This document shows, one piece after another, positions 54,664 to 64,000 of a stretch of DNA of 64,000 nt (within the stretch, counting starts at the first letter, position 1; the number at the start of each line of letters is the position of its first letter). The position numbers were made by a program, and so were the translations under genes. The DNA comes from Candidatus Bathyarchaeota archaeon (GTDB taxonomy: Archaea; Thermoproteota; Bathyarchaeia; Bathyarchaeales; Bathycorpusculaceae), in contig CAVTZU010000010.1 in the NCBI GenBank assembly GCA_963739305.1, positions 53,279 through 117,278 of the forward strand, given 5' to 3'. The notes beneath the pieces were generated by a model. That model saw only the letters and a program-made list of their open reading frames with translations, was not told the DNA's origin and did no database searches.

Positions 54664-55554
54664 TCATTGATGAAGAAAATGTGGTTCATGCGCCAAAAAG
54701 ATGGTCATGAGGACGATTTGTTTTTCTTCAACCTTGTGGAAAAATCTCTGCAGTAGCGCTCTAAACGGCTCAGCCTCCAAGTATTCGCCTTTTTCCAAGG
54801 CTTCATGTTCATATTTCTCAATAAAGTTGCCTATCGACAAGGGGTCTTTGTATTGGCGTACGAGAACTGTTGGCGTTAATATTGCTAATGTTCCACTCTG
54901 CTTCAGCACTCGGTGCCACTCCCTCAAGGATTTCTCCAGAGAATCCTTTTCTGGAACTTCCACGACAATCTCTAGATCAACGAAATCACTTCTCAGCGGG
55001 ATGTTATCGTAAGTCCCGTTCAAGAACCACAAGTTGTCAAAATTGAGGTCCACGGCCAACGAGGCTGGCTTTATAAAGTATATCTTCGCTTGGGGCATCT
55101 TATCGTGAAGACAGCGCAATATTTTCTCGTGCATCACTGAATACTGGGGAGAAATGTAGGCGATTTCTCCTTTTTTATCCACGTTACTAGACAGTAGTTT
55201 GCACATACTGTTGAGAACATTTGTGCCAGCAGGCAGGTTGAGCAGGTACTCGCTGTAGAACCCGTGGACGGTCTCAATGGCATCCAAAAGAAGTCTCTCA
55301 CGTTCCTTCTTGCCTTTCTCGCCGATTCTGTACACTCTTTTCCGAGGTCCAAGCTGGCCTTTCTCCCATCGACCCTCAAGCAATCCGTCCCGCAACATCT
55401 CAGTAAGAACTCTGTACAAACGACTAATACCGACCTCAATCTTTTCAGAGGCAAGCTCCTTGTGAAGCTCATAACCGTAAAACTCTCTACTTCCAAACAT
55501 CCTGAGTACAATCTTCTTAAGGTCCTCTGTCCTCACGACTTTTGATTCTCCCAA
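54664..55554 (-). CDS. PadR-family regulator fused to a degenerate class I methyltransferase-like domain
   Basis: FYGYEL..LY..L..M..DGLL..W..GP.KRVY.I.EKG; C-terminal NIPLRSDFVD...LREWHRVLKQSGTL. Confidence 0.75.
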   Translation of the reverse strand: MGESKVVRTEDLKKIVLRMFGSREFYGYELHKELASEKIEVGISRLYRVLTEMLRDGLLEGRWEKGQLGPRKRVYRIGEKGKKERERLLLDAIETVHGFYSEYLLNLPAGTNVLNSMCKLLSSNVDKKGEIAYISPQYSVMHEKILRCLHDKMPQAKIYFIKPASLAVDLNFDNLWFLNGTYDNIPLRSDFVDLEIVVEVPEKDSLEKSLREWHRVLKQSGTLAILTPTVLVRQYKDPLSIGNFIEKYEHEALEKGEYLEAEPFRALLQRFFHKVEEKQIVLMTIFLAHEPHFLHQ

Positions 55555-55742
55555 TGACCCCGATTACGCTATAGCTAAGGTTCCATATCTTGAAAGCCTT
55601 GTGGTCAACTGCCTCGCGCCAAGGACGTCCCCTCTATATGCGAATTGGTACTATAGCCGTTGTTCGATAGACGCTTAAGAGCAGGTTTTCACTTGGAACC
55701 GCTCCAACGAGTGATTTCACTCAGGATAGGAGGTGAAACAGA

Positions 55743-56567
55743 ATGAGCAAAAACATACGCAACTATGCTGCGCTACTCCTTGCGATTATCTTAGCAGTAT
55801 CAGTAGGCAGCTTCGCCATGTTCACTATTCGTGCACAGAGTACTTCAGCATCTTCGGATCCCTCTCCAACTATCACGCTCACCCCACCCGCCGGACCTGT
55901 ACACACACCAATCACCGTCAATGGAATCGGTTTCAAATCTGGAGCAACTGTGAATCTGACCTGGTTCGGATTCATTCTTGACGTTCCAGGCATCACGGGG
56001 CATTTAGGCTACTATCCCATAAAAACTGGGATAACAGTCCCCTTAAGCGGAAACTTCAGCACCACAATATTAGCACCATATGACTTCTCTGATATCGCTC
56101 ACTTCGTTAACGCAACCCAGAACGGCGTTGGAACAGGCATAATAAACGCCACCTTCACCATCATGCCGACCCTGCAGCTGAGCCCTCAGAAAACCGTCTA
56201 CAAAGATGGGGCCCAAATACTCCTTCACGTATACGGCGGACCACTTGGAACAGCCGCGTTCCAGATGGGGCTTAACCCCATGAACGAAGTAGACGTACTC
56301 AAGTTCACTTATGACAACGCCCTTTGGGGATTTGCGACATCACACTTGCAGACTGAAGGACCCGTAGTGACAGGAGGCTTCGTAGGAGGAGACATCGGAG
56401 GTAACATAACAATAAGTTTCAAAGCAGTCGGATCAATGGGTTATCATGACATCAGAGGATACTTAGGCACAAAGAACGATCCGCCAGTGCCGTATCTACC
56501 ATGCGTAATAGGAGGCGAAGTCGAGTTCTACATCTGGGGTCTAACGCAACCCCAGCCACAAAACTAG
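55743..56567 (+). CDS. Secreted hypothetical protein with Ig-like repeats
   Basis: Signal peptide; PTITLTP..GP..T.ITVNG.GF; strong GGAGGTGA SD. Confidence 0.72.
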   Translation: MSKNIRNYAALLLAIILAVSVGSFAMFTIRAQSTSASSDPSPTITLTPPAGPVHTPITVNGIGFKSGATVNLTWFGFILDVPGITGHLGYYPIKTGITVPLSGNFSTTILAPYDFSDIAHFVNATQNGVGTGIINATFTIMPTLQLSPQKTVYKDGAQILLHVYGGPLGTAAFQMGLNPMNEVDVLKFTYDNALWGFATSHLQTEGPVVTGGFVGGDIGGNITISFKAVGSMGYHDIRGYLGTKNDPPVPYLPCVIGGEVEFYIWGLTQPQPQN

Positions 56568-56675
56568 CCATGCAAGAATGGTTCAAACTCTCTCCTCTTC
56601 TTTTCTCGAGTATCTATAAGCCGTCTCCATAAGCTTGCATCAGTTAGAATATCAGTTTCATGGTCAAGCGCGCTT

Positions 56676-56746
56676 AACCTTAATGCCTTTTCAGTACCAC
56701 TAATAAATCTTAAGTCCACGTTTCCGGTATAACAACCAACTGTAAA
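56676..56746 (-). repeat. 71-bp intergenic module, copy A
   Basis: Minus strand: TTTACAGTTGGTTGTTATACCGGAAACGTGGACTTAAGATTTATTAGTGGTACTGAAAAGGCATTAAGGTT. Confidence 0.8.
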
Positions 56747-56784
56747 GTCATGTCACAAGGAAGAAAAGAACGCGTTCAGCCAAT

Positions 56785-57768
56785 CTACTTTCTTCTTTTC
56801 CCTTGCGTTGCATGCTTGTAAAGAAACTCGAGATTGGCGACAAAAAAGTTTTCAATACATAGCCAAGTGTCGAATGGTGAGGGGATTGGTTCAAGAGATG
56901 CTTGCTCCACATGTTTGCCAGACTTTATCATGTTCACGACGATGCTTTCAAGTGATTGGATATATTGAGACATTACCGAAAGGTCTGTTGATCGACCCAC
57001 AGGACCATGACCAGGAACGGCAATCCGGACTCCTAACTTTTCAATCTTAGCGAGTGATTGTTTCCATTGTTCAGGAGAGCCACTTGCGAGGTAAGGATGC
57101 ATATTGACAAAAAGCAAATCGCCCATAAACGCAATTTTCTCTTTCGGTAGGTAAAGAACAACGTCACTGAATGTGTGACCAGCAAGAGGTAGAAGCTTTA
57201 TTGTTCTCTCTGTGCCGTGTATTGTGAGCCCATTTTCAAAAGTGATGTTTGGAAGTCTTGTCTTCAATTCACAATGCGATTTGCTTACACCCTGCATGTA
57301 AGAAATCAATAAAGCAAGTTCCCGCCGTCTTTTGGCATCTTTCTCAGTATCAAGTTTTGACTCCGCATCCATGATTTCCTTGAGAATTGTCTTTTTTTCC
57401 GATTTGATATTTTCAGGCTCGTTTCGGGCAATTGCTTCACGAGTCTTCACGGTGCTGACCATATCGACATCTGAACGAAAGACTTGGTTGCCGCGAATAT
57501 GGTCGTTGTGCTCGTGACTGTTGATAACATATGTGATCTTGTTTGAGGTCAGTTGTTCAGCAGCATTCAAAAGATCTCTGGCTGCTTCTGGAGAGAGGAA
57601 CGTGTCGAAGATGATGGTTCTGTCACCAATGTCGATGATACCAGCATTGCAGCTTGCATATCCCTGCTCAGAGGCAACTGCAGCATAGACACTATTCGCT
57701 AATCGTTCTATCTGAAAATGTTTCGACTCTGGCAGTCGAGGTGGCACTGCTGGACACTCCCCTTTCAC
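56785..57768 (-). CDS. Metallo-beta-lactamase-fold hydrolase
   Basis: NAGII, INSHEHNDHIRGN, GHT..D, GDL and PGHG. Confidence 0.88.
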   Translation of the reverse strand: MKGECPAVPPRLPESKHFQIERLANSVYAAVASEQGYASCNAGIIDIGDRTIIFDTFLSPEAARDLLNAAEQLTSNKITYVINSHEHNDHIRGNQVFRSDVDMVSTVKTREAIARNEPENIKSEKKTILKEIMDAESKLDTEKDAKRRRELALLISYMQGVSKSHCELKTRLPNITFENGLTIHGTERTIKLLPLAGHTFSDVVLYLPKEKIAFMGDLLFVNMHPYLASGSPEQWKQSLAKIEKLGVRIAVPGHGPVGRSTDLSVMSQYIQSLESIVVNMIKSGKHVEQASLEPIPSPFDTWLCIENFFVANLEFLYKHATQGKRRK

Positions 57769-57832
57769 TCTTCCACGTTGAACAAATAAAAGAATTGCTG
57801 CAAAATTAGGCTCTGCTCAGAGCTGTGCCTTC

Positions 57833-57903
57833 AACCTTAACGCCTTTTCAGTACCACTAATAAATCTAATGTTCCCATCTTCAAGCTAACGACAAACTGC
57901 AAA
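57833..57903 (-). repeat. 71-bp intergenic module, copy B
   Basis: Minus strand: TTTGCAGTTTGTCGTTAGCTTGAAGATGGGAACATTAGATTTATTAGTGGTACTGAAAAGGCGTTAAGGTT. Confidence 0.8.
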
Positions 57904-57921
57904 AAAGCGCATATTCTGATT

Positions 57922-58722
57922 TCATAAACCGTCCTTAAAGGTAGCCATCTTACCATGGAAGCGACGTGGGTCTCTCTGGATTATCTTCACTAAAGCTCGC
58001 GCGGCTGCTTCTGGAGTTATGATAATTCCTTGCTTCTGCATGTCCCCAAAGACACGATGTAGCATTTCAGCTCCACTGCCCTTTGCTTCCCGAGCGCCCT
58101 TCTGCAGATCAGTCTCAACAGCCCCAGGTCGATAAACGAAACAAGTTATCTCTGGGACCTCAGCAGCGAGTTGTCTCGCCAAATGCTCTTCCGCGGCCTT
58201 TGATAAGCAGTAAGCTCCAATTCCTTCTATGTTCCTCTCTGCAGCTCCAGACCCGAAGAAAACCGCTAAACCACTCTTCCTTCTGCGCAGCTCAGGATAA
58301 GAGAAACGCGCAATCTGGTAAGCAGCTAACACGTTAGATCCCCAGACATTCTCAAACACTTTTTCAGGAAGTTCGTACAAGAAAGGACCAGGATGTGCAG
58401 TTCCGGCATTGTGAATGAAACCAGTAAATTCGCCAATTCTAATCGCAGCTTTCACCATATTTCGCGCGTTGGAAGCCAAAGCAGCATCACCTGTCACGGT
58501 CAATGCGTGAACACCTTTCCGTCGAACTGCAGACGCTACTTCTTCAAGAAGTTCCCCGCTTCTGGCGTTCAAGACAAGGTTAACGCCATTTTGAGCCAGT
58601 TCTGAAGCCAAAGCACGACCGATTCCTCTCGAAGCCCCCGTTACAATGAATGTTTTGCTTCTTAGGTCTAGTCCGGTTGCCCCTTTGTCACACGTGCCGG
58701 AAGCAGTCTGGACATCACTCAT
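57922..58722 (-). CDS. Short-chain dehydrogenase/reductase
   Basis: TGASRGIG, HNAG, YCLSK and PG.V.T; GAGGTG SD before ATG 58722. Confidence 0.9.
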   Translation of the reverse strand: MSDVQTASGTCDKGATGLDLRSKTFIVTGASRGIGRALASELAQNGVNLVLNARSGELLEEVASAVRRKGVHALTVTGDAALASNARNMVKAAIRIGEFTGFIHNAGTAHPGPFLYELPEKVFENVWGSNVLAAYQIARFSYPELRRRKSGLAVFFGSGAAERNIEGIGAYCLSKAAEEHLARQLAAEVPEITCFVYRPGAVETDLQKGAREAKGSGAEMLHRVFGDMQKQGIIITPEAAARALVKIIQRDPRRFHGKMATFKDGL

Positions 58723-58800
58723 TATTGACACCTCGAAGACAGAGTTGAACAAGTTGATTATTAAAGACTACAGCTTCAGGACACGTGCTTCTCGCATTTC

Positions 58801-58870
58801 AACTGTAATGCTTTTCATATAGTACAATAAGTCTAATGTTCTCCTCCCCAACGTAACGACAAACTGCAAA
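58801..58870 (-). repeat. 70-bp intergenic module, copy C
   Basis: Minus strand: TTTGCAGTTTGTCGTTACGTTGGGGAGGAGAACATTAGACTTATTGTACTATATGAAAAGCATTACAGTT. Confidence 0.75.
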
Positions 58871-58906
58871 TAGACAGAAAGAAAAGGCGTGCGCAATATT
58901 GGTCGA

Positions 58907-59665
58907 TCAGATGTCGACCTGCTTTCGGACAAAGTCTACCATTTTCTCTGCCCAAAGCTCCAAGTACTCTTCTCCTTTGCCAGCTTCTCCTTTGCGAGAA
59001 TCACCAAGCACACCGTTCTTCGATACGGCTGTAATGCCTTGACTATACATAAGACCCATCATCTCATCATCGAAACTTCCCACAAAACCTTTTTCAGCAT
59101 TCTTCATGTCAACCAGGTCTTTGCGTATGGCTAAAACCATTGACGTTTCAGATTCACCTGCGTGAGCCCCTGATTCAGCAGCCGAAACTCCATGTCTAGA
59201 TGAAAACTCGGCAAGGACTTCAAAAAGACCTTTCAGATCAGTGTAAGACACGACTTTAGTTCCTTCAAGACTTTTGCTGAGCTCATCGGTCACCTCTCGT
59301 ACAGCATTGAAATTTCCGCCGTGAGATGGAAGTATAACGATGTTCTTGAACCCCTGCTTTGCCAGACTAACGCAATAGTCACGGATCAGATTTTTCAGCG
59401 TTTCAGGTCTAAGACTGATGGCTCCGGGGAACACCATGTGAGCATCGGAGCATCCTACGTTTATAGAAGGCGCTTGAAGAGCCCTACCAAGTTTCAAAGT
59501 CACTTTATTGGCCAAAACATCACCTTCCAACGTATCCGTACAGGTGGGCAGATGAGGTCCATGCTGTTCATTTGAGCCCACGGCGAATACAACCGTGCTA
59601 AAACCTCTGTCTAGGGCTTTCTGGATATCAACCCGCGTCATCTCGGACATGCGAACCTTAACCAT
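58907..59665 (-). CDS. Creatininase/amidohydrolase family protein (copy 1)
   Basis: GSNEQHGPHLP.TD, SHGGN and HAGE.ETS; start set at MVKVR, which has a GAGGAG SD. Confidence 0.9.
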   Translation of the reverse strand: MVKVRMSEMTRVDIQKALDRGFSTVVFAVGSNEQHGPHLPTCTDTLEGDVLANKVTLKLGRALQAPSINVGCSDAHMVFPGAISLRPETLKNLIRDYCVSLAKQGFKNIVILPSHGGNFNAVREVTDELSKSLEGTKVVSYTDLKGLFEVLAEFSSRHGVSAAESGAHAGESETSMVLAIRKDLVDMKNAEKGFVGSFDDEMMGLMYSQGITAVSKNGVLGDSRKGEAGKGEEYLELWAEKMVDFVRKQVDI

Positions 59666-59839
59666 TTGTGTCTCCTCGTCTTGTTGATCAAACGTGCCAT
59701 ACTCAAGCGACCTAGTGTTCACCATTTTGTTTCGGTTCAGGTATAACTTTTCCCCACCGTCAGGTTGGTTGGGGTAAAGTTTTATCCCAAACCCAAACCC
59801 CCAAACAGACCAAACTAAAAGGCTTAAGAGAATGAACAG

Positions 59840-60325
59840 ATGATTTTTCATGGGCGTATCAAAGTGCTTGAAGGCGGAAAGAGTTATTCAGACTATACTC
59901 AGAATCTTGCGAATGTTATGAATGGAATGTTGTTTTTCGCGGGCTTCACATTCACAGTAGTTGCGATTCTTCTCACTTCTCTTCCGAATCCAAGATCTAT
60001 ACAGTCACAGTTCACACTTCTCTTTCTCACTGCGATTTTTTACTTGACTGTCTTTCTTGCAATTTTCTTTTTGATAGACGTAACTCACCACATTGAAAAA
60101 GCTCCGCCACTGACTAGACAAAGAAGGATAGTAAACGTGCTTGTTTTTCTCACCTTTCTCTTGATTGGTCTAGCTTTTCCTCTGCTTTTTCTCCTTTGGG
60201 ATTTGACTTCGTTGGCTACTATTTCAAGCCTTATGTGGTTGCTCTTTGCTATCTCTATTCTTCTCTTCGTCTTCATGCCATTTCAAAAATGGCGAGCTGA
60301 TAAAGGTAAATCTGACAAAATCTAA
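59840..60325 (+). CDS. Hypothetical 4-TM membrane protein
   Basis: Four hydrophobic segments (FFAGFTFTVVAILL...). Confidence 0.7.
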   Translation: MIFHGRIKVLEGGKSYSDYTQNLANVMNGMLFFAGFTFTVVAILLTSLPNPRSIQSQFTLLFLTAIFYLTVFLAIFFLIDVTHHIEKAPPLTRQRRIVNVLVFLTFLLIGLAFPLLFLLWDLTSLATISSLMWLLFAISILLFVFMPFQKWRADKGKSDKI

Positions 60326-60405
60326 GAATCGATCGATCATAGCGCGTGCAATCCACAAGAATTAACGAAAATTCTTGTGATGCGCGCGCTATAATAGAAT
60401 GATTA

Positions 60406-60884
60406 TTAGATTTTGTCATATTTACCTCCATCAGCTCGCCATTTTTGAAATGGCATGAAGACAAAGAGGAGAATAGAGATAGCAAAAAGCAACCACATGA
60501 CTTGAATAGTAGCCAACGAAGTTAAATCCCAAAGGAGAAAAAGCAGAGGAAAAGCTAGACAGATCAAGAGAAAGGTGAGAAAAACAAGCACGTTTACTAT
60601 CCTTCTTTGTCTAGTGAGTGGCGGAGCTTTTACAATGTGGTGAGTTACCTCTATCTAAAAGAAATGCAATAAAGACGGTCAAGTAAAAAATCGCAGTAAG
60701 AAAGAGAAGTGTGAACTGTGACTGTATAGCCCTTGGATTCGGAAGAGAAGTGAAAGATCGCGACTACTGTGAATGTGAAGCCCGCGAAAAACAACATTCC
60801 ATTCATAACATTCGCAAGATTCTGAGTATAGTCTGAATAGCTCTTTCCGCCTTCAAGCGCTTTGATACGCCCATGAAAAATCAT
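60406..60884 (-). pseudogene. Frameshifted mirror copy of the 4-TM protein gene
   Basis: Fragments 60651-60884 and 60406-60591 match 59840-60325. Confidence 0.7.
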
Positions 60885-61058
60885 CTGTTCATTCTCTTAA
60901 GCCTTTTAGTTTGGTCTGTTTGGGGGTTTGGGTTTGGGATAAAACTTTACCCCAACCAACCTGACGGTGGGGAAAAGTTATACCTGAACCGAAACAAAAT
61001 GGTGAACACTAGGTCGCTTGAGTATGGCACGTTTGATCAACAAGACGAGGAAACACAA

Positions 61059-61817
61059 ATGGTCAAGCTTCGCATGTCCGAGATGACTCGGGTTGATATC
61101 CAGAAAGCCCTGGACAGAGGTTTTAGCACGGTTGTATTCGCCGTGGGCTCAAATGAACAGCATGGGCCTCATCTGCCTACCTGTACGGATACGTTGGAAG
61201 GTGATGTTTTGGCCAATAAAGTGACTTTGAAACTTGGTAGGGCTCTTCAAGCGCCTTCCATAAACGTAGGATGCTCCGATGCTCACATGGTGTTCCCCGG
61301 AGCCATCAGTCTTAGACCTGAAACGCTGAAAAGTTTGATCCGTGACTATTGCGTTAGTTTGGCAAAGCAGGGGTTCAAGAACATCGTTATACTTCCATCT
61401 CACGGAGGAAATTTCAATGCTGTGCGAGAGGTGACCGATGAGCTCAGCCAAAGTCTTGAAGGAACTAAAGTCGTGTCTTACACTGATCTGAAAGGTCTTC
61501 TTGAATTCCTTGCCGAGTTTTCATCTAGACATGGAGTTTCGGCTGCTGAATCAGGGGCTCACGCAGGTGAATCTGAAACGTCAATGGTTTTGGCCATACG
61601 CAAAGACCTGGTTGACATGAAGAATGCTGAAAAAGGTTTTGTGGGAAGTTTCGATGATAAGATGATGGGTCTTATGTATAGTCAAGGCATTAAAGCCGTA
61701 TCGAAGAACGGTGTGCTTGGTGATTCTCGCAAAGCAGAAGCTGGCAAAGGAGAAGAGTACTTGGAGCTTTGGGCAGAGAAAATGGTAGACTTTGTCCGAA
61801 AGCAAGTCGACATTTGA
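61059..61817 (+). CDS. Creatininase family protein (mirror copy 2, intact)
   Basis: Same motifs as copy 1; 8 amino-acid differences and no indels. Confidence 0.75.
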   Translation: MVKLRMSEMTRVDIQKALDRGFSTVVFAVGSNEQHGPHLPTCTDTLEGDVLANKVTLKLGRALQAPSINVGCSDAHMVFPGAISLRPETLKSLIRDYCVSLAKQGFKNIVILPSHGGNFNAVREVTDELSQSLEGTKVVSYTDLKGLLEFLAEFSSRHGVSAAESGAHAGESETSMVLAIRKDLVDMKNAEKGFVGSFDDKMMGLMYSQGIKAVSKNGVLGDSRKAEAGKGEEYLELWAEKMVDFVRKQVDI

Positions 61818-62001
61818 TCGACCAATATTGCGCACGCCTTTTCTTTCTGTCTATTTGCAGTTTGTCGTTACGTTGGGGAGGAGAACATTAGACTTATTGT
61901 ACTATATGAAAAGCATTACAGTTGAAATGCGAGAAGCACGTGTCCTGAAGCTGTAGTCTTTAATAATCAACTTGTTCAACTCTGTCTTCGAGGTGTCAAT
62001 A

Positions 62002-62794
62002 ATGAGTGATGTCCAGACTGCTTCCGGCACGTGTGACAAAGGGGCAACCGGACTAGACCTAAGAACAAAACATTCATTGTAACGGGGGCTTCGAGAGGAA
62101 TCGGTCGTGCTTTCGTTTCAGAACTGGCTCAAAATGGCATTAACCGTCTTGAACGCCAGAAAGCGGGAACTTCTTGAAGAAGTAGCGTCTGCAGTTCGAC
62201 GGAAAGGTGTTCACGCATTGACGTGACAGGTGATGCTGCTTTGGCTTCAACGCGCGAAATATGGTGAAAGCTGCGATTAGAATTGGCGAATTCACTGGTT
62301 TCATTCACAATGCCGGAACTGCACATCCTGGTCCTTTCTTGTACGAACTTGCTGAAAAAGTGTTTTAGAATGTCTGGGATCTAACGTGTTAGCTGCTTAC
62401 CAGATTGCGCGTTTCTCTTATCCTGAGCTGCGCAGAAGGAAGAGTGATTTAGCGGTTTTCTTCGGGTCTGGAGCTGCAGAGAGGAACATAGAAGGAATTG
62501 GAGCTTACTGCTTATCAAAGGCCACGGAAGAGCATTTCGCGACAAACCAATTCTGAGGTCCCAGAGATAACTTGTTTCGTTTATCAACCTGGGGCTGTTG
62601 AGACTGATCTCCAGAAGGGCGCTCGGGAAGCAAAGGGCAGTGGAGCTGAAAATGTACGTCCGTGTCTTTGGTGATATGCAGAAGCAAGGAATTATAAAAA
62701 CTCCAGAAGCAGCCGCGCGAGCTTTAGTGAAGATAATCCAGAGAGACCCACGTCGCTTCCATGGTAAGATGGCTCTCCTTTAAGGACGGTTTAG
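62002..62794 (+). pseudogene. Indel-riddled mirror copy of the SDR gene
   Basis: Reverse complement of 57922-58722 with many small indels. Confidence 0.7.
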
Positions 62795-62950
62795 TAAATC
62801 AGAATATGCGCTTTTTTGCAGTTTGCTGGTTGACTTGAAGATGGGAACATTAGATTTATTAGGTGTACTGAAAAGGCATTAAGTTTGAAGGCACAGCTCT
62901 GAGCAGAGCCTAATTTTGCAGCAATTCTTTTATTTGTTCAACGTGGAAGA

Positions 62951-63931
62951 GTGAAAGGGGAGTGTCCAGCAGTGCCACCTCGACTGCCAGAGTCCGAAAC
63001 ATTTTCAGATAGAACGATTAGCGAATAGTGTCTATGCTGCAGTTGCCTCTGAGCAGGGATATGCAAGCTGCAATGCTGGGTATCATCGACATTGGTGACA
63101 GAACCAGTCATCTTCGACACGTTCCTCTCTCCAGAAGCAGCCAGAGATCTTTTGAATGCTGCTGAACAAAGTAAACAAATCACATATGCCTATAGACAGT
63201 CAGCGAGCACAACGACCATATTCGCGGCAACCAAGTCTTTCGTTCGGACATGTGGATCTAGTCAGCACCGTGAAGACTTCGTGCGAACAAGTGCCGAAAC
63301 GAGCCTGAAAATATCAAATCGAAGAAAAAAGACAATTCTCAAGGAAATCATGGATGCGGAGTCAAAACTTGATACTGAGAAAGATGCCAAAAGACAGCAA
63401 GAAGTTTTCCTTTATTGATTTCTTACATGCAGGGTGTAAGCAAATCGCATTGTGAATTGAAGACGAGACTCCAAACATCACTTTTGAAAATGGGCTCACA
63501 ATACGCGGCACAGAGAGAACAATAAAGCTTCTACCTCTTGCTGGTCACACATTCAGTGACGTTGCTGTTTTACCTACGAATAAGAAAATTGCGTTTATGG
63601 GCGATTTGCTTTTTTGTCAATATGCATCCTTACCTCGCAAGTGGCTCTCCTGAACAATGGAAACAATCACTGGCTAAGATTGAAAAGTTAGATTATACCG
63701 GGTTCGTTCTGGTCATGGTCCTGTGGGTCAATAAACAGACCTTTTGGTAATGTCTCAATATATCCAATCACTTGAAAGCATCCATCGTGAACAGGGTTGG
63801 CAAACATGTGGAGCAAGCATCTCTTGAACCAATCCCCTCACCATTCGACACTTGGCTATGTATTGAAAACTTTTTGTCGCCAATCTCGAGTTTCTTTACA
63901 AGCATCTCAACGCAAGGGAATAAGAAAGTAG
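62951..63931 (+). pseudogene. Indel-riddled mirror copy of the MBL hydrolase gene
   Basis: Fragments IFDTFLSPEAARDLL, HPYLASGSPEQWKQ and LEPIPSPFDTWL lie in different frames. Confidence 0.7.
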
Positions 63932-64000
63932 ATTGGCTGAACGCATTCTTTTCTTCCTTGTGACATGACTTTACAGTTCGTTGCCGGAAACGTGGACTTA

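Follow-up and report, generated by a model that had tools for sequence, protein, structure and literature searches.

Similar promoter-bearing sequences ahead of unrelated genes have been described in prokaryotes as putative mobile promoters (PMPs; Nijveen, Matus-Garcia and van Passel, PMC3575422), a concept of promoter propagation and reuse in which stretches of 50 nt or more, at least 80% identical, are found upstream of non-paralogous genes in one genome. In this study, a 64,000-nt stretch of DNA (hereafter the window) from a Candidatus Bathyarchaeota archaeon (assembly GCA_963739305.1, contig CAVTZU010000010.1, positions 53,279 to 117,278) was analysed; it carries three copies, designated A, B and C, of a 70–71-nt intergenic module for which the PMP is the closest described concept. 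As with PMPs (PMC3575422), similar non-coding sequence stands ahead of unrelated genes, approximately 50–150 nt before the start codon, with no tie to a known mobile element and with a mechanism of spread that is unknown. Unlike PMPs, the module forms co-oriented arrays of variable content by a resident orthologous copy, has a terminator-like tract, faces convergent genes in a third of its copies and resides in an uncultured archaeon.

The attC sites of integron cassettes are imperfect inverted repeats with the boxes R'' (RYYYAAC) and R' (GTTRRRY). According to the main text of Ghaly et al. (2022, PMC9668308), archaeal attCs share the single-stranded fold of bacterial ones, and IntI belongs to the tyrosine recombinases and has an extra domain specific to it. 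Set beside that text, the arrays studied here resemble integron arrays and clusters of attC sites lacking integrases (CALINs) in their short, mostly co-oriented open reading frames (ORFs), a repeated site less than 4 kb apart, a gene content that varies between relatives and the lack of an integrase in most arrays. They are unlike integrons in that the module has no fold, R'' box or adjacent integrase, does not travel with the upstream gene and is promoter-like; as far as that text describes archaeal integrons, the array form is the only defining feature that the two have in common. The main text of PMC9668308 nowhere uses the word stem 'Bathyarch'. Among the titles found on promoter propagation, mobile promoters and archaeal integrons there was no such Bathyarchaeia module, although one may exist in print.

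Correia elements, ERIC and REPIN sequences are short and dispersed, can supply promoters or terminators, are palindromic or bear terminal inverted repeats, and transpose. They are named in PMC3575422 as promoter-bearing intergenic repeats of bacteria. The module is likewise short, dispersed and intergenic and, unlike these repeats, is without symmetry or target duplications. On the evidence given below, we lean toward a module that has been propagated as a terminator–promoter unit, with arrays growing by recombination between its copies.

Repeated modules of the window and their conserved core

In the following, G000 denotes the genome under study, G001 to G010 are ten further genomes of the same genus, C with a number is a contig and L with a number a related locus; the window is G000:C10:53279–117278, and its last base is the last base of contig C10. 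The three modules are co-oriented (Table 1) at spacings of 1157 and 967 nt, and each lies 3′ of a same-strand gene, C following a creatininase-family gene, B a short-chain dehydrogenase (SDR) gene and A a metallo-beta-lactamase-fold (MBL) gene. In a repeat search of the window, A and B aligned gap-free over 71 nt with 79% identity, including a 35-nt block with a single mismatch; C matched B at 84% across its 5′ 45 nt and required one gap in the MAFFT alignment. A and B share the box TTTATTA, in place of which C has CTTATT-G, and the distance from the start of the box to the GTT that, followed by purines, closes all three copies is 29 nt in A and B and 28 nt in C. A profile made from A, B and C alone found 11 further sites on 7 other contigs of G000 (E 5e-16 to 0.045), so that the similarity of the three is not due to chance. 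A preliminary description, made from the letters alone, had reported these modules after three genes, their alignment and their common ending, and had stated that A aims at no gene; all of this held in the repeat, MAFFT and profile searches, the convergent 274-aa ORF standing opposite A.

Pairs A/B and B/C fall just under the PMP criterion. Copy B lies above it in two comparisons, with 87% identity over 67 nt to C20:2051–2117 and 86% over 71 nt to C20:40–111, the flanking genes being unrelated. The PMP placement is shared by B and C, whose boxes start 96–120 nt before the MBL starts and 105 nt before the SDR start, respectively, and is not shared by the copies that face convergent genes.

Searches with a second-round profile and a sequence-only covariance model gave 22 matches in G000 (3 in a mirrored arm at the contig end, described below), 13 in G009, 11 in G004, 9 in G005, 4 each in G008 and G001, 3 in G006, 2 each in G002 and G003, 1 in G010 and none in G007, a genome that is 65% complete. 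Outside the mirrored arm G000 has approximately 19 copies, and the range between species is from 1 to approximately 19. By BLAST, the module was found in 9 of 10 genomes of the same genus and in none of the 14 genomes that represented other genera of the family; among 16 genomes from other families of the order, two gave matches of 23–29 nt only (E approximately 0.009). The module is confined to one Bathyarchaeia genus. The G000 copies are clustered, with 3 in the window, 4 on C32, 3 on C12 and 3 on C20. In viral contigs, two exact matches to a 19-nt core string were set aside as chance, these contigs being AT-rich and without similarity beyond approximately 22 nt.

The copies on C13 and C17 of G000 lie in 97.5%-identical DNA (G000:C13:150000–158007 and G000:C17:1–8700; L027 and L028), in which an ABC ATPase gene, a 546-aa ORF, the module, a peptidase A4 gene and an M50 peptidase gene are in common. 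Before the module the contig ends differ, C13 having two NosD-like genes and C17 a STAND NTPase gene; these ends may be strain variants binned together, in which case the two module copies would not be paralogues. Contamination of G000 is 7.8%.

Thirty-eight copies from ten genomes, aligned and anchored on TTTATT, were conserved from −13 to approximately +35 and had nothing in common thereafter. The conserved core reads tgGaACATTAGA TTTATTagTg.tac.G.aaa.gCaTtaaggTTAAa. The 45 nt ahead of it fall into related subtypes, each with a TTTGCAG-like and a TGCCRTTAG-like box, and still further upstream most copies have a pyrimidine/T tract, often with GCGCGC. Between 30 and 90 nt before the box, TTTT occurred in 24 of 34 copies and TTTTT in 13 of 34, compared with 36% and 13%, respectively, of random intergenic 60-mers. 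The T-rich tracts before the window copies (that of A in Table 1, with counterparts at 57904–57912 before B and 58871–58890 before C) are read as terminator-like, and a terminator role is suggested for them. Archaeal transcription generally starts approximately 26 nt from the box. With the box centre at +3, the GG of GGTT, at +28/29, occupies the expected position and is the predicted transcription start; conservation ends approximately 6 nt further on.

Around an invariant core of 17–20 nt, different upstream halves of the module are combined with different downstream halves, a reassortment that fits recombination within the core by a homologous or dedicated-recombinase mechanism. Two other readings of the module were rejected: a small conserved peptide, the ATG of copy B not being kept in other copies, and a hairpin between box and GTT in RNA or DNA, the paired triplets varying without consistent compensation across nine orthologous copies. 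Rfam searches gave only tRNA far from the modules in L028, L056 and L029, and no family match in the modules in window 55500–60500; a single sub-threshold match, to FsrA at 59769–59848, lies outside the modules and was discarded. There were no tRNA genes in window 40000–64000.

Resident copy, gene context and variable arrays

One module copy is orthologous in nine species, in which it stands directly ahead of a small gene next to two moeA genes. An ATG 46–47 nt after TTTATT begins an ORF of 114–160 aa in 8 of the 9 species (114–123 aa in 7 of these 8); in the ninth, G001, the same ATG is present and the call of the long ORF begins at a TTG at +72. The small gene has no Pfam match, and its product is 53–75% identical between relatives. 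Sequence is conserved from −13 to the ATG (approximately +50), and the adjacent coding DNA is 68–70% identical between species. Because the genes upstream vary between species and the spacing to the ATG is fixed, this module goes with its downstream gene. TATA-like hexamers genome-wide peak 31–50 nt before starts; TTTATT thus stands at a genome-typical distance before the ATG, and the promoter-like character ascribed to the module in the preliminary description is borne out by the resident copy in nine species. Judged from these alignments, the resident copy is an ordinary promoter of a fixed, syntenic small gene. The possibility raised beforehand, that the copies are only ordinary promoters at fixed genes, is true of this copy, but the arrays vary in content between species.

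A conserved non-coding element of approximately 135 nt was found directly 3′ of one module subtype, twice in G000 and also in G001, G004 and G009 (L028:5940–6075, on G000:C17, and also in L027, L056, L074 and L076), with 81–91% identity between species. It ends in a T run, CCCTGGCTTTTT, and its 3′ 50 nt hold a tRNA T-arm-like GGATTCAACTCC with relatives at other loci; neither Rfam nor ARAGORN recognized the element. A small RNA and an intron-containing or split tRNA-like gene are its candidate identities. Its position after the module points the same way as the resident copy, namely to a promoter that goes with a downstream unit.

By gene context, the 19 G000 copies comprise 9 with same-strand genes on both sides, 6 (including A) with a same-strand gene upstream and a convergent gene downstream, 2 in divergent regions, 1 at a contig start facing a convergent gene, and 1 truncated copy opposite to both neighbours. 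A same-strand gene is followed by 15 of the 18 copies whose upstream side is known, and 11 of 19 precede one. Between co-directional gene pairs, 9 of 10 copies are co-oriented with the genes, the exception being the truncated copy. This bias, together with the T tract, suggests a two-part unit that ends transcription of the preceding gene and carries a promoter reading on; where a gene follows, the module would serve as its second promoter, and where none does it would be idle or antisense. Genes flanking the copies encode mostly small enzymes of redox/detoxification type. Helix-turn-helix (HTH) genes of DUF7347/ArsR type stand beside copies in L090:5208–7928 (G004:C80) and L068:18204–19217 (G008), and HxlR genes are near copies in G000:C17 and G009:C9; their products are possible regulators of the module.

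Arrays were compared at one locus, which runs from a CDGSH gene to the small gene and the two moeA genes, with modules reading toward moeA. With M denoting a module, the order was SDR, M, SDR', M, three ORFs, M, four ORFs, M, small gene in G000:C32; M, GNAT, M, 70-aa ORF and glyoxalase, M, CMD, M, small gene in G001, a one-contig genome; and SDR, ATPase, M, 99-aa ORF, M, small gene in G009:C10. Between CDGSH and moeA there are therefore 4, 4 and 2 co-oriented modules in G000, G001 and G009, respectively. The flanks of the G000 and G001 arrays match at 90% and at 68–70%, and the interiors are without DNA similarity except for the modules; the G009 interior is unlike both others, the modules again excepted. 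These observations agree with the expectation, set out in the preliminary description, of tandem arrays whose gene content varies between relatives. G008 has 2 modules 7.4 kb apart at the moeA locus, and G002 and G005 have the resident copy only, in a divergent intergenic region. Further arrays occur on C32, C12 and C20 of G000 and in G001 and G009.

The numbers follow an n+1 geometry, with 4 modules for 3 units in G001 and 2 modules for 1 unit in G009. Such a geometry by the resident copy is the expectation for single-crossover insertion of module-bearing circles, and it agrees with the earlier prediction that each insertion duplicates the site. A 1.2-kb segment of G005:C8 (L089:4618–5842) holds four same-strand module fragments, interrupted only by a DUF1801 gene; deletions between copies may have left it as a scar.

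As a propagated terminator–promoter module, the portable intergenic unit would combine a terminator-like tract rich in pyrimidines and T with a strongly constrained archaeal core promoter and the predicted start: the conserved GGAACATTAGA, the TTTATT box and then a conserved stretch of approximately 22 nt, which, lying between box and start, is probably the operator of a regulator. The resident copy would drive the conserved small gene beside moeA wherever it is found in the genus, and further copies would have spread, in species-dependent numbers, into clusters of genes for small accessory enzymes (SDR, MBL, SnoaL, glyoxalase, CMD, GNAT and EthD). In the window, where the copies lie upstream of proximal promoters, they would add a second, commonly regulated promoter and a terminator for the preceding gene. 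Copies would supply 45–70 nt of homology to one another, and a circle with one copy, on inserting at the resident copy, would leave a new gene between two copies; the co-oriented arrays of different content are proposed to arise from this homology. The family with its restriction to the genus and its anatomy, the fixed spacing of the orthologous copy, the variable arrays at a conserved locus and the lack of attC features and of an adjacent recombinase are shown by the comparisons, whereas transcription initiation, the operator, the terminator role and homology-driven insertion are inferred.

A further reading, which we put forward tentatively and to which we give only a modest chance, is promoter-mediated gene capture: circular DNA with the same module would land at the resident promoter, and each insertion would duplicate the promoter and deliver a gene ready for expression. 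If true, it would do the work of an integron with no integrase (or with an unknown recombinase), a transcription signal taking the place of the folded attC.

No genetic system exists for the Bathyarchaeia, a group abundant in peat and sediment, and a genus-conserved promoter reused at up to approximately 19 sites in a genome offers a concrete way into their transcription and regulation. Array growth by recombination at the module, if real, would show how an archaeon can stockpile and express accessory genes without integron machinery, and would provide a testable mechanism for promoter propagation.

Weighing of the explanations

Several observations weigh against the propagated terminator–promoter unit. 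The start at the GG is a prediction from spacing, and no transcript ends were seen in the contigs of one RNA run, a form of data that does not reveal starts. Ahead of the box the module has A, T, T and A at −6 to −3, positions at which A accounts for 41–53% genome-wide, and its ATTAGA is less A-rich than the general signal of the genome resembling a B recognition element (BRE). The SDR and MBL genes own canonical TATA-like boxes 44–48 nt before their starts, so that the module is not needed as their promoter; proximal boxes are also present at several other module copies. Seven of the 19 G000 copies, including A and the one at a contig start, face a convergent gene and cannot drive an mRNA, and 2 of 19 are in divergent regions, compared with 322 convergent and 409 divergent regions genome-wide, which is a bias to the 3′ ends of genes. 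The reassortment of halves around an invariant core also fits a crossover site. Of the 13 copies in G009, one lies among small ORFs that match no family, with a tyrosine recombinase gene 1.15 kb away, and probably rides on an integrated element. The C13 and C17 copies, if strain variants, would inflate the G000 count.

The rival that survives best, although we regard it as unlikely, is purely regulatory: the module would be an operator–promoter common to a stress/detoxification regulon and kept alike by selection, and the arrays would reflect only the clustering of accessory genes under common regulation, with no role in gene turnover. A core that is near-identical across species, beside neighbouring genes of 68–70% identity, indicates constraint and not recency, and both the redox/detoxification character of the flanking genes and the HTH regulators near some copies (HxlR in G000:C17 and G009:C9, DUF7347/ArsR-type in G008 and G004) would suit a regulon. 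Selection for regulation alone does not predict co-oriented arrays adjoining the resident copy, and it is also opposed by the copy number of 1 to approximately 19 between species, the convergent genes faced by 7 of 19 G000 copies and the proximal promoters that the window genes already have. Were the module only a regulon signal, it would be an ordinary but unusually sharp case of promoter reuse.

The preliminary description took the module for the site at which a dedicated cassette system of non-canonical type recombines; in this reading, an unrecognised recombinase would act in trans at the core, and the promoter would be carried along. The n+1 co-oriented arrays upstream of the resident copy (G001, G009), the unrelated gene content at one locus between species, the single copy in two species, the reassortment of halves, the four module fragments in G005:C8, the G009 copy near an integrase and the SDR gene that is 93% identical between G000 and G009 in different arrays all speak for such a system. 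The modules also have the spacing of attC arrays and CALINs, in which two or more sites are separated by less than 4 kb and by co-oriented ORFs. Breakpoints of half copies were considered as a sign of crossover and dropped, because partial copies are detectable only when the core is included and their breakpoints carry no information.

The tests specific to integrons were negative. Single-stranded DNA folds of eight copies gave z values of +1.64, +2.03, −0.46, −0.65, −0.47, −0.38, −1.42 and −0.43 against shuffles, with no attC-like hairpin; for two of the three window copies, 195 and 198 of 200 shuffles folded better than the copy itself. None of the three window copies has a RYYYAAC partner, and the absence of this box and of the attC dyad symmetry had been correctly noted beforehand. 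The likeness of the closing GTT to G|TTRRRY is true of GTTAAGC and not of GTTGAAA and GTTGAAG, i.e. of one copy in three, and conservation ends at about the predicted transcription start and not at a crossover motif, which does not support a crossover at the GTT.

A recombinase beside a copy had been named beforehand as a test, and the PF00589 and PF00239 searches found none adjoining the arrays. Contig C10 has no match to the tyrosine recombinase family PF00589; the nearest such gene in the complete genome G001 is approximately 308 kb from its array, and in G000 the integrase-like matches closest to copies lie at 6.2 kb (broken) and at 8.4 kb (sub-threshold). The serine recombinase family PF00239 was found in none of three genomes (G000, G001 and G009). 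Each gene had further been paired with its own site as a cassette, and this pairing failed: the module does not accompany the upstream gene at the creatininase orthologue of G008 (91%) or at the SDR orthologue of G009 (93%), module A is absent downstream of the MBL orthologue (89%, G009), the upstream side of which is a contig end, and homology of the window-gene orthologues stops at the stop codon or at GCGCGC. The arrays are not integrons, since there is no fold, R'' box or adjacent integrase and the site does not travel with the upstream gene. Of the cassette reading, the promoter-like core and the co-oriented variable arrays stand, but the attC fold, the adjacent recombinase and the linkage of site and gene do not, and a dedicated system is distinctly improbable.

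A non-autonomous element like a miniature inverted-repeat transposable element (MITE), with an outward-reading promoter and moved by a transposase encoded elsewhere, is very improbable: the module is dispersed, genus-restricted and variable in copy number, and promoter-bearing miniature elements are known (PMC3575422), but the copies have no inverted arms, terminal inverted repeats or fold, the flanking GCGCGC is a genome-wide post-stop motif and not a target duplication, 9 of 10 copies between co-directional genes read in the direction of those genes, and one copy is orthologous in nine species.

Window genes, contig end and dispersed motifs

Table 1 Positions of modules, genes and other features in the window
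Feature	Position	Strand	Remarks
Convergent ORF, 274 aa	55743–56567	convergent to module A	no Pfam match
Module copy A	56676–56746	−	3′ of MBL gene, facing convergent ORF 55743–56567; TTTATT starts 56707; predicted transcription start GG 56679/56678
Pyrimidine/T-rich tract	56747–56775	−	between MBL stop and module A
MBL gene (PF00753)	56785–57768	−	first GTG 57768; second GTG 57744 after GGGGAG
Proximal TATA-like box CTTTTATTTG	57783–57792	−	between module B and MBL gene; 48 nt before second MBL GTG
Module copy B	57833–57903	−	between SDR stop and MBL start; TTTATT starts 57864; predicted start 57836/57835
SDR gene (PF00106)	57922–58722	−	ATG at 58722
Proximal TATA-like box CTTTAATAAT	58757–58766	−	between module C and SDR gene; 44 nt before SDR ATG
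Module copy C	58801–58870	−	between creatininase stop and SDR start; CTTATT starts 58831; one-base deletion relative to A and B
Creatininase-family gene (PF02633)	58907–59665	−	ORF open to 59851; Pfam match from residue 70; GGAGA-ATG at 59665
Mirrored second arm of contig-end inverted repeat	60381–64000	+	90–100% identity, many 1-nt indels

Window 55729–56659, 56794–57798 and 57918–58674, covering the 274-aa ORF, the MBL gene and the SDR gene, is 89–93% identical to G009, and other genes common to G000 and G009 are 67–79% identical. The higher identity suggests a recent exchange of these three genes within the genus. The SDR orthologue of G009 is in the moeA-side array and not next to a creatininase gene, the MBL and creatininase orthologues (in G009 and G008) are in other gene contexts, and synteny with G001 stops near window 55650. 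As gene order indicates, the window genes are mobile in the sense that their contexts differ between species.

A small separate promoter family, GTAGTCTTTAATA with its leader (window 58757–58769, minus strand), was found approximately 44 nt before the starts of unrelated genes; the proximal box ahead of the SDR gene (Table 1) is one of its members. It has 7 matches in G000 at no more than 1 mismatch, 2 of which are the window site and its mirror, and also occurs ahead of a DUF4760 gene in G008:C14.

The segment 56733–60350 is mirrored by the second arm, with the centre at 60351–80, so that the array is present twice and the apparent number of modules in the window is doubled. The mirrored arm holds a C copy at 61846–61932, a B copy at 62807–62896 and the start of A at 63962–63999, and single-base indels break its SDR and MBL frames. 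Two metagenome contigs that track the first arm leave it into unlike sequence at approximately 60346 and 60376 without turning back; the second arm is therefore probably an assembly foldback artefact of long-read type at the contig end. A 477-nt metagenome contig spans the SDR gene, module C and the creatininase gene with one difference, in a run that is possibly from the same sample as the assembly. Logan unitigs, at approximately 200 nt, are too short for transcription starts, circles or long-range order. A joint from 57734 to 59763 in a metagenome contig was set aside, its shorter side having only 20 letters and a highly repeated motif being involved. Low depth over 58680–58863 was given no weight, and the RNA run matches the MBL gene at approximately 90% likeness only.

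Copy A abuts AAGCGCGCTT. The GCGCGC palindrome reported there is present (window 56667–56676), but it is a genome-wide intergenic motif and not part of the module: G000 has 1101 occurrences compared with 412 expected, 746 of them outside the ORF set, that is, in 17% of the genome, whereas the controls GGCGCC and GCCGGC were outside ORFs in 52 of 384 and 29 of 328 cases, respectively. Its occurrences peak 0–39 nt after stop codons, with a weaker peak 40–100 nt before starts, and breaks of synteny with G009 fall at GCGCGC.

Another intergenic family dispersed in the genome, (GGGTTT)n-GGATAAAACTTTACCCC-(AAACCC)n, is represented at window 59763–59800; its inverted arms are G/C-rich and its centre is AT-rich. 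This family has 52 matches in G000 (no more than 3 mismatches to the 18-nt centre), and in metagenome contigs it is found at very high depth with many different flanks.

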